A stretch of 64,000 bases of DNA, from contig JAGARQ010000023.1 in assembly GCA_017622175.1 (NCBI GenBank), positions 2,429-66,428 of the forward strand. Reading direction: 5' to 3'. The position numbers were made by a program. This DNA comes from Bacilli bacterium (GTDB lineage Bacteria > Bacillota_I > Bacilli_A > RF39 > UBA660). This document shows positions 12,001 through 18,000 of this stretch, one piece after another; within the stretch, counting starts at the first letter, position 1; every line of letters begins with the position of its first letter.

Positions 12001-15000
12001 TAACTACACGTACTGTGTCTCCATATTTTTCATTAAATAATGCCATTGCTCCTAGTTGTTTAGCTTTATCGATTGGCATTATTTCTGTAGATACGATTAA
12101 GTTTTCACTAATCATGTCATTTGCGAATTTTTCTACTTCTAATAGTTTTTCATCTGTCATTTTACCTGAGTATGTAAAGTCAAATCTTAATTTTTCATCA
12201 TCTACATAACTTCCTGCTTGATGGATTGAATCAGATACTACTTGTTGTAGTGAATATTGTAAGATATGAACACTTGAGTGATTAGCTTCAATCTTTTTAC
12301 GACGATCTTTATCAATTACTAGTTCACATTCATCTCCGATTGAGATAGTTCCATCTAATAGTTTAACTTTATGAATATGTTGACCATTTGGTCCTTTAAA
12401 TACTTCTAAAACTCTTGCTTTAAATGCAGGTGATACAATCATTCCTGTATCTGATACTTGACCACCTTGTTCTGCATAGAAACAAGTTCTATTTACTGCG
12501 ATATAACAATCGTGATCAATATTATCTACGATTTCATCTTTTGAAAAGATGGCAATTACGTTTGCTTTTTGTCTATATAACCCATATACAAATTGAGAAT
12601 CATCTTTAAAGTCTAATAATACTTTCTTTTGAGATGCCATTTGTGTTTTGTTTTTTGCGTTTTTCTTAGCTAATTCTTTTTGAGCAGCCATATATTTATC
12701 AAATTCTTCTTTTGATACTTTGTATCCTAATTCTTCTAAATATTCTTCTGTTAATTCAAATGGGAATCCATATGTATCATATAATTTGAATGCTTCTTCT
12801 CCACTGATATAACCATCAGTTGATTCTTTAACTAATTCTTTTAATCTTCTTTCTCCTGATTCAAGAGTTTTTAAGAATAGTTTTTCTTCTTCTAATACTG
12901 TTGTTTCTACTTCAGCGCGTTTTTCTACTAAGTATGGATATGCTTCTTTCATAACATCTACTACGTCAGAAACGATTTTATACATAAATGGTTCAGTGAA
13001 ACCTAAATGTTTTCCAAAACGTACACTACGACGTAATAGTCTTCTTAATACATAACCTCTACCTACGTTTTCAAAACATGCTCCATCTGCTAAAGCAAAT
13101 GTGATTGCACGAATGTGATCAGCAATTACTTTATATTCTTTTTGACCTGTATATTTAGTTTTAGCTAATTCTTCAATGTGTTTGATGATTGGTGTAAATA
13201 AATCTGTTTCAAAGTTTGAATCAACATTTTGGAAGATACAACACCATCTTTCAAGACCTGCTCCTGTATCGATGTTTTTACTAGGAAGTTCTTGATAATC
13301 TTCACGTGAAACTCCTTCTTTTGAGTTAAATTGTGAGAATACATTATTCCAAATTTCTACATATCTTTCTTGATCTTCATCTTTTCTAAATTTAGCTAGT
13401 GCATCTCCATCTTTATCAAAGGCAATTCCTCTATCGAAGAAGATTTCTGAATCTGGTCCGCATGGCCCTTCTCCAATTTCCCAGAAGTTTCCTGCTAGTG
13501 GAACAATGTGTGATTCATCTAATCCTACTTCAATCCATCTTTTTCTTGCTTCATCATCATTTGAATAAATTGTTACATAGATTAAGTTTTTATCTATATC
13601 AAAATATTCTGGTGATGTTAATAATTCAAATGCGAAGGCAATTGCTTCATTTTTAAAATAGTCTCCTACTGAGAAGTTACCCATCATTTCAAAGAATGTT
13701 TGATGTCTTTTTGTAACTCCTACGTTTTCAATGTCATTTGTACGGATACATTTTTGAATACTCATTAATCTTCTTGATTCTGGTACTTCACTTCCGTCAA
13801 AATATTTTTTTAATGGTGTAACACCTGCATTTACCCAAAGTAGGCTATCATCATTAATTGGTACAAGTGGTGCACTTTCAAATAGTTTATGTCCTTTTTC
13901 TTTAAAGAATCTAAACCATGTATTTCTGATGTCATTATGACTCATGTACTTCATTTTACTTCTCTCCTTCAGTTTCTTCTATTGTGTTTAGTATTTCTAT
14001 TAATCTTTTTTCATATTCTTCTAAATTACCATTATTAAATATGTAATAGTCTGCGTATCCAATTGGACCACCTTTGGCGAGATTTTCAATTTCAGATACG
14101 TCTCTTATAATTATTTCATCATGATTGAATGGTCTATCTATTCTTTTACCAACTCTTTCATAACGAATGGCTTTATCACAAACAATACAAATTAGTTTTA
14201 GATTTGGGAATTTTTCTTTTAATATTAAATATTCATCCCATGAATATAAACCATCTAGTACTGTGTTGTTTTCTTTATAAGCATTTTCTATATCAAATTT
14301 TAGAATTTCCGCGACTGCACCCATTCCATATTGTTTTCTTAAGTTTTCACGATATTCTTTTTGAGATTCAGGAGTTATTTCGATTCCTTCTTTTCTCATT
14401 CTATCGTATACCGCGCCTCCAAAATAAATTTTAGTCCAACCATTATTTTGCAGGTAATCAGTTGCAATTGATTTACCACTACCGGCCATACCTACTACGG
14501 CGATTAGTTTATTCATATTATTCACCTTCTTCTTCGTTAACAATAGCTTTGGCCATTTCTTTTAATTCAACAATTCCAGAACTTGTTATATCATAATCAA
14601 ATTCTTCAAAATCATCTAAATCATTTTCTGTTATATGAGCTTTTTCTGTTTCAGACAAAGTATTTTGATAATTTTCTCTTGTTAATCTTATTGATACGAC
14701 ATCTTTATATTTTGATTTTAGATAATCAAATTCTTTTTTTAATCTAGCATCAACAATAATAAATGTATCAAAAAATTCACTTAGTATTTCAATATCTTCT
14801 GAAAGTCTATCTAATAAAAATGTTTTCTTTCCAAGTTTTTCTTTAATTATTTCTACACCCATTTTTTGTAAGAATTCTCTTGGTTTTTCGTCACTATGTT
14901 CATTCCATTCAAAATAGTTTTCAGCATATGAATATAGAGGTGTTGTTAAATGCATAACACAAGGTTTATATCCATATTCTTTTAATTCTTCTCTTAAAAA

Positions 15001-18000
15001 TTTTCCAAAAGTATTTTTACCACTTTTTGCCTTACCACCAATTACATATAATTTCATTTTATTCTCTCCTTTTTTGCCAAATAAAAGACCACGACTAGGA
15101 GGACATTTTTGCCCGGTACCATCCTATCTTGGTCTTGATTTACAATAACGGTTTTTAACCGATAAAACTCTAAAAGTAGCTTCCTAAGGTTATGTACTTG
15201 TTTTCACCAACCACAAGTTCTCTAAAATCATAAGTGACTTAGTACTCATCTTTTTTCGCTGTTTTATTAATATTTAATTTATTAGTTTCTACTTTTCTCC
15301 TGTTAGGCGATCAACAATATTTAACTTCTCATCTAGATATGTAAATATTACTTTGCCTGCAGCGATCACAGGGGTAGCAACTATCATCCCTATGATACCA
15401 AAGAAATGTCCAAAAATCAATAGGCCAAGCATAATTGTTACAGGATGTAATTTCATTGTATGTCCCATGATTAATGGTTGATAGAAATTGTTTTCTAATG
15501 TTTGTACTACAAGTATCGCAATTATTGAACAAATTCCTGTTATTGGTGATGTAGCAAAGGCTACTATCACTACTGGAACTGCTCCGATATATGGCCCAAA
15601 ATATGGAATAATATCTGTTAAGGCACAGAATAATGCAAAGATTAATGGTGCTTTTAAACCAACAAGTGTTAATCCAATAGCTTGTGTTATAAATACAAGT
15701 AACATTATTAATAATAAACCTTGAATATAATCTCTTAGTGAATCGTTTAATCTATCACCTAATTCTTTATATGGTTTTTTCCATCTTTTTGGAAGGATGC
15801 TTACGATATGATCATTTAATTTATCAAAATCAAATAACATATAGAATCCAATCATTAAACCTAGGGCGAATGAGACAATTCCACTAAAAACACTTTGACC
15901 TGCAGATAATATTGTATTTGGAATACTTGTTGTTAGACTGTGACCAAAATGTTCAATTGATGCATATACTTCTTTTTTTATTGAAGTGGTATTTATTCCA
16001 GTTTTTCCTCCAAGTGATTTAAAGAAAGCATCTACTATTTTAGTGAAATCTTTAATTAAATCTGGAATTGTTCCTATAAAATCTTTTACTTGGTCGATAA
16101 ATGTTGGAACAATTAAATATAATAATAAGAATAAACTACCAATAATTAATAAATATACTAAAATACATCCAAGAAGTCTTGGTATTTTTTTCTTTTGAAA
16201 CCATCTTACTAATGGATCAAATAACCAGGCAATTATTAATCCTATAAAGATTGGTGATATTACGGCAAAGAATTCAGCAATAAAACCTAATATCCCCCAC
16301 TCTTTAATTAAATGAGTTCCTAATATGACAATGGCGATTATCGCAATTACATAAAATATTTCAGATAATTTACTACCTATTTTTAATATTTCATTTAAAC
16401 TAGTGTAGTCTAGTTCAGAGTCTTTTTTCTTTCTAAACATCATATCAACTCCTCTTCTTAAATTATAGCATAGATACTAGAAATAAACTATGTTTTAAAG
16501 TATAATATTTTTAGGTGATTTATTTGAAAACTATAAAGTCTGCATCAACTAATGAAATTATTATTAAAAATTCAAGATTTATTACTGTACTTGTTCCAGT
16601 GTTTGATGATACAGATATAAATTCTATTTTTGAAGATATTAAAATTAAGTATCCTAAGGCTACACATTATTGTTATGCATATATTACAAAATCGTTCAAA
16701 AAAGCAAGTGATGATGGTGAACCTGGTGGTACTGCTGGAATGCCAATGCTTAATGTATTAGATAAAGAAGGTATGATTAATACTTTAGCCATTACAATAA
16801 GATATTTTGGTGGTATTAAACTTGGGGCTGGTGGATTAGTTAGAGCTTATTCTAAGTCAGTAAGAGATGCAATTATTGAATCTGAGACAGTTGAGATTGA
16901 AGAAGGATATTCAGTAATGATAAAAACTTCTTATGATGAACAAAAAGATTTAGAATACATATTAAAAAATTGTGAAATTACAAATAAAGAATATTTAACT
17001 GATGTTACTTATACTGTTTTGATTCCTAAAAATAAATTAGATATTCTTAATAATTATTCTTATCAAATTATTAAAGAAGAATACATAAAAAAGTTCTCTG
17101 ATTAGAGAACTTTTTATTATGAAAATACTTTTTCTTTTACTTTATCAATTTCTTGTCTTGTTTCATTTATATATTTTAATTCTTCAGATGATAAATTATG
17201 TTGTGATACTTTTGCTTCTTTTTCTTCATCTGATAAATATGCCCAACTTACTGTTAGGTTTTTAAGAATTGTTCTTCTTTTGTGTAGTTCACTTGCTCTA
17301 CCAATAAGTGCTTTTTGATCGAACTTTAATGGCATGAAGAAAGCTTCTTCTACTTCATCTTCATCTAAATGATAATCAAGTATTAATTGAATTCTTTTTT
17401 CTTCATCAGTTTCAAATCCCACATTAAATAAATGATATTGTTCGACAGCATTTGTATATCTATCAACACTTGATGTAATTACTTCTTGTTCTTCTTCTAT
17501 TAGACGATATTCACCTACATATGTTTGGAAATGTTCATCTACAAGTTCACTTACTATATCTTTATCATGTTCTTCTTGAGATGCTTTTTTATAGAATTTA
17601 ATCATGTTTCTGTAAATAAATTCTAAATAGTCATATTGATTTTTTGAAGAACGTTGAAAACTGTTATTTTCCATTGCTTGATATATATCAATACAGTTTT
17701 GAGACATATCATAAAGTATAGCTTCTGAATCTAAATTTAAATATGTTAGAAGATGTGATACTAATACTTCATTTCCATATTTAGAATATATCCATGTTGA
17801 GGGTCTTAATTGACCATGTTGTCTATATTCACAAATACATCTATTAATTAATGATTGAAGGTCTTCGTCTGATAAACCTTTCATTCTTAATTTAACTGCT
17901 TTTTGAATAACAGTATAATTTAGTCCATGATCAAGACAATATTGTCTTAAATTTGTTTTTTCATCATACATTAATACTTTTTTGGGTTGATGTGTATGAA

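Follow-up and report, generated by a model that had tools for sequence, protein, structure and literature searches.

A T-box(Ala) switch normally controls the alanine tRNA-charging enzyme only. The locus described here, on the minus strand of a 64,000-nt stretch of a Bacilli genome (assembly GCA_017622175.1, contig JAGARQ010000023.1, positions 2,429 to 66,428; the whole stretch is called the window in the following), raises the question of how far such control can reach: between a T-box-like leader and alaS, the gene of alanine--tRNA ligase (AlaRS), lie two P-loop kinase genes, here called K1 and K2, and alaS is followed by holA, the gene of the DNA polymerase III delta subunit. An earlier note on this DNA had read these elements as one unit under tRNA-Ala control, and the match to the Rfam family RF00230 and the map of open reading frames (ORFs) put all of them on the minus strand in the places that it had given. 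We consider it likely that K1, K2, alaS and holA form a four-gene operon under a tRNA-Ala-sensing T-box attenuator, in which the kinases are of the nucleotide type and K2 stands in for cytidylate kinase (Cmk).

RESULTS

The leader is predicted to be a tRNA-Ala T-box without Stem II

The covariance model RF00230 matches the leader with 83.1 bits (E 9.4e-19 in a local scan; Table 1), and in a permissive Rfam scan of the whole window this match is the sole T-box and the sole cis-regulatory match. The significant hit anticipated by the earlier note is thereby found (window-wide E 1.7e-16), but its score stays under the gathering score of RF00230, 93 bits; when the whole window was scanned at the gathering threshold the T-box was not recovered, and permissive filters were needed. 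The leader falls ~10 bits short because the Stem II of the model is deleted in the alignment.

The proposed alanine identity of the leader is borne out by a GCU specifier, a UGGU bulge and an intrinsic terminator with its U-tract, and the T-box(Ala) leader is kept in all 80 relatives that we compared. The T-box sequence and its helices read AGGA[UGGUACC]GGGCA...UGUCC-UCCU, with UGGU at the bulge's 5′ edge. The Stem I elements (GA/K-turn motif, AG bay, distal loop and specifier loop) are complete in the window leader and are likewise kept in the 80 genomes.

Among alaS T-boxes a natural variant class has been described in which Stem II is absent, the specifier is GCU and UGGU pairs with the ACCA end of tRNA-Ala, whose discriminator is A73 in the species studied, so that the bulge U of UGGU would pair with A73 (PMC4695836). 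With this deletion variant (e.g. Clostridium acetobutylicum alaS; PMC4695836) the window leader shares the GCU specifier, the UGGU bulge, the absence of Stem II, a Stem I with GA motif, AG bay, distal loop and S-turn, and an intrinsic terminator with U-tract. It differs from it in that one or two kinase genes precede alaS and holA follows, in that the sole hairpin after Stem I goes with an F-box-like CCGUUA and lacks the purine flanks RRRxG...AA, and in that the terminator encloses the antiterminator, the 3′ strands of helices A1 and A2 not being its 5′ arm. We take the leader to be a genuine T-box for tRNA-Ala. In function it is a member of the T-box family and of the deletion variant class already described; it fails two formal checks, the Rfam gathering score and the canonical terminator topology. 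No tRNA-Ala gene was found in the window.

In the Rfam alignment the one hairpin that follows Stem I falls on the IIA/F-box element of the model, with Stem II and the Stem III insert both deleted, and the CCGTTA (CCGUUA in the RNA) that follows is almost invariant across the aligned leaders of the relatives. CCGUUA is the F-box of Stem IIA/B, and the hairpin may be either Stem III or Stem IIA. Standing alone between Stem I and the T-box sequence and bearing CCGUUA, it possibly represents a distinct reduced T-box architecture. Further downstream, the leader alignment has a conserved string, AAAUUAAG, directly 5′ of the terminator base. The 3′ strand of A1, CUCCU (15092..15100, minus strand), is also complementary to the Shine-Dalgarno (SD) sequence AGGAG of K1 about 25 nt downstream, which may be coincidence or a secondary, translational layer.

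Four tightly packed genes follow the leader

A non-coding stretch of 231 nt separates the stop codon of the upstream AI-2E-family transporter gene from K1, after which four ORFs on the minus strand are tightly packed. K1 and K2 are separated by 1 nt, the K2 stop lies 1 nt from the alaS ATG, and alaS and holA overlap by 8 nt. The last two spacings agree with the earlier note; the 26-nt overlap of the kinase genes which it had described holds only for the longest ORF, beginning at TTG 14543. The ATG at 14516 is the most likely start of K2: it is preceded by the SD sequence GAAGGTGA and chosen by gene callers, and the K2 homologues all start with M-[NKH]-K-[LI]-[IV]-A, matching this ATG.

Between K1, K2, alaS and holA the gaps are too small to leave room for a promoter or terminator, and we infer from this layout that the four genes are carried on a single transcript. 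A promoter scan gave no convincing promoter for the leader, into which transcription may read through from the AI-2E-family transporter gene. Because alaS is the only alanine-related gene downstream and all 80 genomes have an alanine codon as specifier, a transcript running through the kinase genes is implied. The switch would exist for alaS, and the other genes would be co-transcribed cargo, packed tightly enough to share its mRNA. Putative co-regulation of the kinases and holA by tRNA-Ala charging is well supported, by the architecture of the operon as by evolutionary reasoning.

Leader and gene order recur in 80 close relatives

As the comparison set for leader and gene order we used 80 species-level genomes fetched with the K1 alignment. 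They are metagenome-assembled genomes (MAGs) of uncultured ‘Bacilli’ from gut or rumen, filed variously as Mollicutes, Erysipelotrichaceae or Mycoplasma sp. CAG:877, and they are close relatives, with AlaS 67% to 92% identical to that of the window. The organism of the window belongs to the same group, its locus lying on an 832-kb contig with sporulation genes close by. When the alaS upstream regions were compared, as the earlier note had proposed, leader and gene order were found retained in all 80. Loci long enough to judge have the AI-2E gene, a gap of ~230 nt, K1, a gene in the slot held by K2 in the window, alaS and holA, with a convergent rarA in most; the gaps range from 5 to 36 nt between K1 and the slot gene, from -7 to 44 nt between the slot gene and alaS, and from -4 to 89 nt between alaS and holA.

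The specifier is GCU in 77 genomes and GCA in three, both of them alanine codons, and the UGGU bulge and the AG bay are present without exception (80/80 each). RNAalifold found compensatory changes at 30 of 38 predicted pairs, mainly in Stem I and helix A2; at one A2 pair the leaders have GC in 57, UA in 18 and AU in 5 cases. The recurrence of leader and gene order is far more than chance could give.

Table 1. Positions, within the 64,000-nt window, of the predicted alanine T-box operon, its leader elements and neighbouring features
Feature	Position	Strand	Basis or annotation
AI-2E-family transporter gene, upstream of leader	16443..15289	-	
Predicted T-box(Ala) leader, reduced class without Stem II: Stem I, one hairpin, antiterminator	15094..15268	-	RF00230
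GA/K-turn motif AGAUGAGUA of Stem I	15251..15243	-	cmscan alignment
AG bay AGAGA of Stem I	15223..15219	-	
Distal loop GGUUGGUGAAA of Stem I	15212..15202	-	
Specifier loop GGAA-GCU-A (S-turn GAA, codon, purine)	15184..15176	-	
Specifier codon GCU (Ala)	15178..15180	-	cmscan alignment
Single hairpin CGGUUAAAAACCG after Stem I, then F-box-like CCGUUA	15146..15161	-	
T-box bulge UGGUACC, 7 nt	15121..15115	-	
Terminator hairpin, 52 nt, -19.1 kcal/mol	15085..15136	-	RNAfold
U-tract UUUUAUUU of intrinsic terminator	15079..15086	-	Read from sequence
K1 Shine-Dalgarno AGGAG	15066..15070	-	
K1, 179 aa, first cistron	15057..14518	-	ORF map; GenBank ‘hypothetical protein’ MBO5120567.1
K2, 186 aa, variable slot	14516..13956	-	GenBank ‘AAA family ATPase’ MBO5120566.1
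alaS, alanine--tRNA ligase, 896 aa	13954..11264	-	TIGR00344, 842.2 bits vs cutoff 457.05
holA, DNA polymerase III delta, 310 aa, last cistron	11271..10339	-	TIGR01128, 193.1 bits vs cutoff 80
rarA/mgsA, convergent, ends the unit	9082..10314	+	ORF map
DeoB-like phosphopentomutase gene	6913..8088		
ORF of 722 aa with internal repeats	17117..19285	-	No significant Pfam match
tdk	19920..20528		
spoIIGA-sigE, spoIVB, spoIIP, gpr, beside tdk	19920..24307, 46328..48310		
gltX	30715..32373	-	
tRNA-Arg(CCU)	41876..41952	-	58.9 bits vs gathering 29

The slot between K1 and alaS holds either K2 or cmk

The earlier note had allowed that the kinases might turn out to be a standard CoaE (dephospho-CoA kinase) or Cmk. 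For the second kinase this is so in part of the lineage: in 14 of the 80 genomes tblastn finds no K2, and a gap of ~650 nt encodes a canonical cmk (TIGR00017, 241-254 bits vs a cutoff of 135.55), while the K2 of the window is neither. The two states are interspersed on a neighbour-joining tree of AlaS (drawn without support values), and no locus has both. The exchange is seen also on an independent 317-kb bioreactor contig. Between spoIVB and the deoB-like gene it agrees with the window gene for gene, except that it has Cmk where the window has K2, and an additional ORF behind holA. In DNA it is identical to the window at 60-83% in leader and K1, 25-50% across 14527..13983 and 68-85% in alaS, and the drop falls precisely at the boundaries of the slot ORF. 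This pattern amounts to a clean in-situ swap of K2 and cmk.

K2 itself matches SSO1041 of Sulfolobus solfataricus (3LW7/3H0K) over residues 3-177 vs 2-175 with 28-29% identity (phmmer, E 1.3e-12). Its AlphaFold2 (AF2) model (mean predicted local distance difference test, pLDDT, 86.6) is matched by Foldseek to 3LW7, in which AMP is bound, with E 2.8e-11 and template modelling (TM) scores of 0.77/0.84. By these matches K2 is assigned to the UPF0200 / AdkA-like (SSO1041) family of P-loop kinases. The two proteins are alike in size and topology over their full length; they differ in that K2 is bacterial and SSO1041 archaeal, and in that canonical cmk takes the place of K2 in sister genomes. A literature search on UPF0200/SSO1041 gave nothing relevant and no reported function.

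Several other assignments of K2 were tried and rejected. As a CoaE it scores 19.7 bits against a cutoff of 65.55 with TIGR00152, over residues 4-31 only, and CoaE structures rank under SSO1041 and adenylate kinases; the JGI label ‘dephospho-CoA kinase’ on some homologues is hence unsupported. As a member of the Cmk family it has no TIGR00017 match, and hhalign aligns only the 37 N-terminal residues. The kinases had also been described as paralogues; K1 and K2 show no similarity by BLASTP and an hhalign probability of only 28%, and their families are different.

K2 probably takes the place of cytidylate kinase without being its orthologue. The main reason for thinking that it does the job of Cmk is the in-situ swap of two non-homologous genes with the nucleoside monophosphate (NMP) kinase fold: Cmk and K2 share the operon position, the fold and a similar size, whereas their homology is confined to the 37-residue P-loop region. 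K2 also has full-length homology to the kinase-like domain of the anti-phage deoxycytidine triphosphate (dCTP) deaminase model of PADLOC (E 5.5e-8), and this homology to a cytosine-nucleotide-handling defence domain points to a Cmk-like role as well. In a homologue search with the Cmk of the slot, 120 of 120 among the matches listed were slot-type Cmk, at least 70% identical. A literature search combining T-box with cytidylate kinase gave nothing relevant.

K1 resembles the deoxynucleotide kinase of phage T4

The likeness of K1 to gp1, the deoxynucleoside monophosphate (dNMP) kinase of phage T4, which the earlier note had recognised, is confirmed at several levels. K1 passes the cutoff of PF21448 (DNMK; 35.6 bits vs 27.1) and matches phrog_139 ‘dNMP kinase’ over residues 1-175 (5.4e-22), and the top Foldseek match of its AF2 model (pLDDT 83.5) in the PDB is T4 dNMP kinase, 1DEK (E 2.3e-5). 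Profile alignment places KPREFLQKxG of K1 against VRRLMQALG of gp1, DARL against DTRQ and HITE against HITE. Across 33 diverse members of the K1 family the only invariant residues are the P-loop and KPRxxLQ, DxRxxxE and HxTE. K1 looks catalytically competent because its invariant residues are the P-loop and motifs shared with gp1. In the PDB profile search designer pentatricopeptide proteins came up as top matches; they were weak matches summed over target repeats and were discarded, and the search was repeated without residues 1-46 of K1.

K1 and gp1 have in common the P-loop GxxxSGK[DN]T, KPRxxLQxxG, DxRxxxE, HxTE and the NMP-kinase fold. They differ in length (179 vs 241 aa), their identity in the structural alignment is only ~14%, and K1 is chromosomal, vertically conserved, without close phage relatives and under a T-box. 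Its wider family comprises 789 clusters (50% identity) at E <= 1e-10. No match of K1 was found by tblastn in 50,697 GenBank phage records, which argues that K1 is not a recent phage acquisition. We suggest that K1 is probably a housekeeping (d)NMP kinase, with a specificity of the dTMP/dGMP type as the leading guess. A 374-aa family member, P0507, has an N-terminal RNase H domain fused to a C-terminal DNMK (K1-like) domain and so links the family to DNA metabolism.

The adjacency of tmk and holB is widespread. In Pseudomonas putida, the one organism for which PMC10653934 documents it, the only thymidylate kinase, an essential one, is the T4-like dNMP kinase PP_1964, whose gene is coupled in translation to the clamp-loader gene holB. 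K1 likewise shares its predicted operon with a clamp-loader subunit gene, and K1...holA echoes the theme of tmk-holB operons, in which a dNMP-kinase gene and a DNA polymerase III clamp-loader gene are co-transcribed, K1 being a predicted kinase. The differences are that the subunit here is delta (holA) and not delta′ (holB), that an aminoacyl-tRNA synthetase gene intervenes, and that control is by tRNA sensing.

Distant lineages separate a core from later additions

More distant K1 homologues were sampled individually (loci L089-L097). In L089, a T-box(Ala) of 85.7 bits is followed by a K1~Cmk fusion and alaS, with no holA and with different flanks (AlaS 58% identical to that of the window). 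The fusion (L089:7001-8194; P0368/P0511) is one 397-aa polypeptide with the junction KEIYGWEKTYEIAIDGP, directly upstream of alaS, and occurs in two independent assemblies, the second being GCA_016648615.1. L094 has T-box, K1, alaS and holA with the slot empty (AlaS 64%), L095 has T-box, K1, K2, alaS and holA (AlaS 65%), and L097 has K1, alaS and relA (AlaS 53%) behind a T-box of 96.7 bits, which is above the Rfam threshold and retains a short Stem II-like hairpin. On the short contig fragment L090, K1 overlaps alaS directly, and L091 runs mreC, mreD, K1, K2 to the contig end. In L092 (2382-4654), radC and mreC precede a K1 of 37% identity, which overlaps by 4 nt a short alaS of 583 aa without the C-terminal DHHA1 domain; no T-box was detectable in the 332-nt AT-rich gap upstream of this K1. 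Two loci are counter-examples to the linkage: K1 adjoins pgk-tpiA and not alaS in L096, and the homologue in L093 lies in a phage-like locus.

These arrangements do not agree with the unity of the four genes that the earlier note had implied. They argue that the conserved core is T-box(Ala), K1 and alaS, and that holA and the slot gene are later, lineage-specific additions to it. K1 would be the ancient first cistron, retained in lineages with AlaS only 53-65% identical to that of the window. The position between K1 and alaS is variable, taken by K2, by cmk, by a cmk fused to K1 or by nothing, and holA would have been appended in one sub-lineage. As a separate observation, alaS of L094 (5542-8228) is called as two ORFs of 612 and 284 aa that sum to full length, which may reflect a frameshift, faulty assembly or a true split of the gene.

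The antiterminator is nested in the terminator

In a canonical T-box (PMC7583486), an uncharged tRNA base-pairs to the bulge and is stacked onto helix A1, and the discriminator domain is locked by Stem III together with its purine string; failing this, the terminator takes the 3′ strands of A1 and A2 as its 5′ arm. The 3′ domain of the window leader is folded differently. In the minimum-free-energy structure (RNAfold), a 7-bp basal helix, AAGACCA/UGGUCUU, encloses the antiterminator and abuts the U-tract, and the antiterminator is the upper part of the 52-nt hairpin, consisting of A1 (AGGA/UCCU), the bulge and A2 (GGGCA/UGUCC), with a core of -6.3 kcal/mol. As RNAalifold on the full leader gave an implausible F-box/T-box pairing for the 3′ domain, it was replaced by per-sequence folds for the relatives. 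By these folds hairpin and U-tract are present in 80 of 80, and the nested terminator, antiterminator plus basal helix as in the window, in ~65. An alternative design is found in ~14 of the 80 (L028, L044, L046, L049, L056, L057, L060-L063, L071, L072, L079 and L083), in which the T-box strand GGAUGGUACC pairs with a downstream GGUAUCAUCC and covers the tRNA-binding bulge directly. Both forms depart from the canonical scheme, in which the use of the 3′ strands of A1/A2 as the 5′ arm makes terminator and antiterminator mutually exclusive. The basal helix is nearly invariant in the close clade and covaries in distant lineages (GACCA/UGGUC, GAUCUA/UAGGUC and GGCUAU/AUAGCC); it is therefore a real helix. 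The nested form is found in the distant L089, L094 and L095 as well.

The switch probably works as follows. In a leader transcript of ~200 nt, Stem I would read the anticodon of tRNA-Ala through the GCU specifier. An uncharged tRNA would pair through its 3′ ACCA with UGGU of the 7-nt bulge, the antiterminator would be stabilised, the stem beside the U-tract would stay open, and transcription would continue through K1, K2, alaS and holA; if tRNA-Ala is charged, the 52-nt hairpin would close and transcription would end before K1. In such tRNA-dependent read-through, as we infer it, binding of the tRNA and folding of the discriminator domain would keep the 5′ strand, the conserved AAAUUAAGACC linker, from its partner, so that the base cannot close.

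A variation on the T-box sequence itself is seen in L074 and L078, the most divergent of the close clade (leader ~5768-6003), in which it reads GGAUGGUAAAG against GGAUGGUACCG elsewhere, with UGGU retained and ACC changed. The ACC of the T-box bulge is said to stabilise the discriminator.

DISCUSSION

Several of our own observations weigh against a four-gene T-box operon of nucleotide-type kinases. Scores of the leaders are low throughout: not only the window but all 11 close relatives sampled and three distant leaders are below the RF00230 gathering score, which L097 exceeds, and in this the group differs from the published deletion variant. The hairpin after Stem I has the flanks UUUAU...UUAUUG, which are not purine-rich, and the Stem III string RRRxG...AA is not evident. 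The nested antiterminator shares no competing strand with the terminator, and the canonical model fails to explain how tRNA would block termination. An internal promoter may lie inside K1 or K2, the K1 profile also matches an animal-type phosphomevalonate kinase (PMK), and the empty slot in some lineages weakens the equivalence of K2 and Cmk.

The promoter question leads to the explanation that the T-box regulates only the kinases, or a short leader transcript, and that alaS and holA are expressed from an internal promoter, co-regulation being an artefact of gene packing. AT-rich DNA readily supplies -10-like sequences, and weak sigma-70-like matches do lie on the minus strand inside K1 (14742..14715) and at the alaS start (13935..13908); yet promoter-like sites are in no excess, 32 being found against 43 expected from shuffled sequence, there is no second T-box before alaS, and an alanine T-box would have no selective reason to persist in 80 of 80 relatives and in distant lineages unless it controlled alaS. 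We hold this explanation to be quite improbable. The match of the K1 family profile to PMK is full-length for the silkworm enzyme 7XND (E 1.5e-4) and extends to human PMK, 3CH4 (E 0.04), and several K1 homologues have weak PF04275 matches, so that K1 could be thought to serve isoprenoid synthesis and not to be a nucleotide kinase. That is very unlikely, as PF04275 never reaches its cutoff (at most 33.0 vs 33.8 bits) where PF21448 passes, the H-I-T-E and D-x-R motifs match gp1, and neighbours and fusion partners are cmk, K2 and RNase H and never genes of the mevalonate pathway. A still fainter chance attaches to the idea that the two kinase genes came into the alaS leader region as an insertion, from a phage or as anti-phage defence. 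In its favour, phages are where the K1 family is known best (phrog_139), K2 is similar to the kinase-like domain in an anti-phage dCTP deaminase, and the distant homologue of L093 is in a phage-like locus. Against it, K1 has neither a PADLOC match nor one among the GenBank phages, K2 lacks the deaminase domain, and synteny on the chromosome holds in more than 80 species, where the neighbours are housekeeping genes.

What keeps K1 at its place is a question on which two explanations compete. K1 could be tied to AlaRS or tRNA-Ala by its function, recycling the AMP of aminoacylation or acting on a tRNA-linked substrate like O-phosphoseryl-tRNA kinase (PSTK). In at least seven arrangements that differ in their flanks (the window clade, L089, L090, L092, L094, L095 and L097) alaS comes immediately after K1, often with an overlap, and the K1 model has tRNA-bound PSTK (3ADC) as its fourth-best match in structure. 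Against such a tie stand the contexts of K1 in L096 and L093, the conserved motifs, which are those of T4 dNMP kinase, and the fusions to Cmk and to RNase H, which point to nucleotide and DNA metabolism. Moreover, most variants have the upstream AI-2E gene in common, and much of the linkage may be due to common descent within one broad lineage; it would also be hard to remove a gene placed between leader and target without harming alaS expression. We regard the functional tie as rather unlikely, and as unlikely the broader proposal that K1 is a dedicated AlaRS partner and the leader a distinct T-box subclass. In that proposal the lasting place of K1 as first cistron, across lineages with AlaS 38-65% identical to that of the window and with start/stop overlaps onto alaS, would reflect a task shared with AlaRS, such as local AMP recycling or phosphorylation of a substrate linked to tRNA-Ala or to alanylation, and the leader, with its nested antiterminator and no canonical Stem III, would switch with no exchange of strands. 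The fusions to Cmk and to RNase H, and the motifs shared with gp1, lead us to rank higher the explanation that K1 persists as an essential gene trapped between leader and target.

In the four-gene operon with nucleotide-type kinases, which we prefer, genes resembling nucleotide kinases and one for a replisome subunit would come under a tRNA-Ala sensor throughout a lineage. K1 may be another phage-type dNMP kinase in a housekeeping role, like PP_1964 of P. putida. The swap of K2 and cmk gives a concrete functional hypothesis for the UPF0200/SSO1041 family, whose structures are solved. The expression platform departs from the strand-exchange model behind current mechanistic accounts, and more than 80 natural sequence variants are at hand to probe it. 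As K1 and K2 are unannotated and the leader is below the threshold of the Rfam pipeline, this regulation is likely to go unannotated, and Rfam-based annotation would miss this leader class systematically. The operon is a solid lead, open to test, for the T-box mechanism and for two unannotated kinase families, and not a new category of system.

Other features of the window

Another aminoacyl-tRNA synthetase gene in the window, gltX, has no T-box detectable even in the permissive scan, which suggests that T-box control is not general for such genes in this organism. The tRNA-Arg(CCU) gene was missed by the gathering-threshold Rfam run, although it scores well above its threshold (Table 1), and was recovered by the permissive run and by ARAGORN; it is an example of filter loss in AT-rich sequence. 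The 722-aa ORF contains several internal repeats of ~70-80 aa (...YYE.H.T...EG.TL.IG.FL...R...) and is conserved in the same-species contigs L001-L006. With the DeoB-like phosphopentomutase gene and tdk, nucleotide-salvage genes lie near the operon. Beside tdk, the window carries sporulation genes (spoIIGA-sigE, spoIVB, spoIIP and gpr). Since they occur in a lineage often labelled Mycoplasma or Mollicutes, they indicate that these MAGs come from probable spore-formers and not from mycoplasmas.

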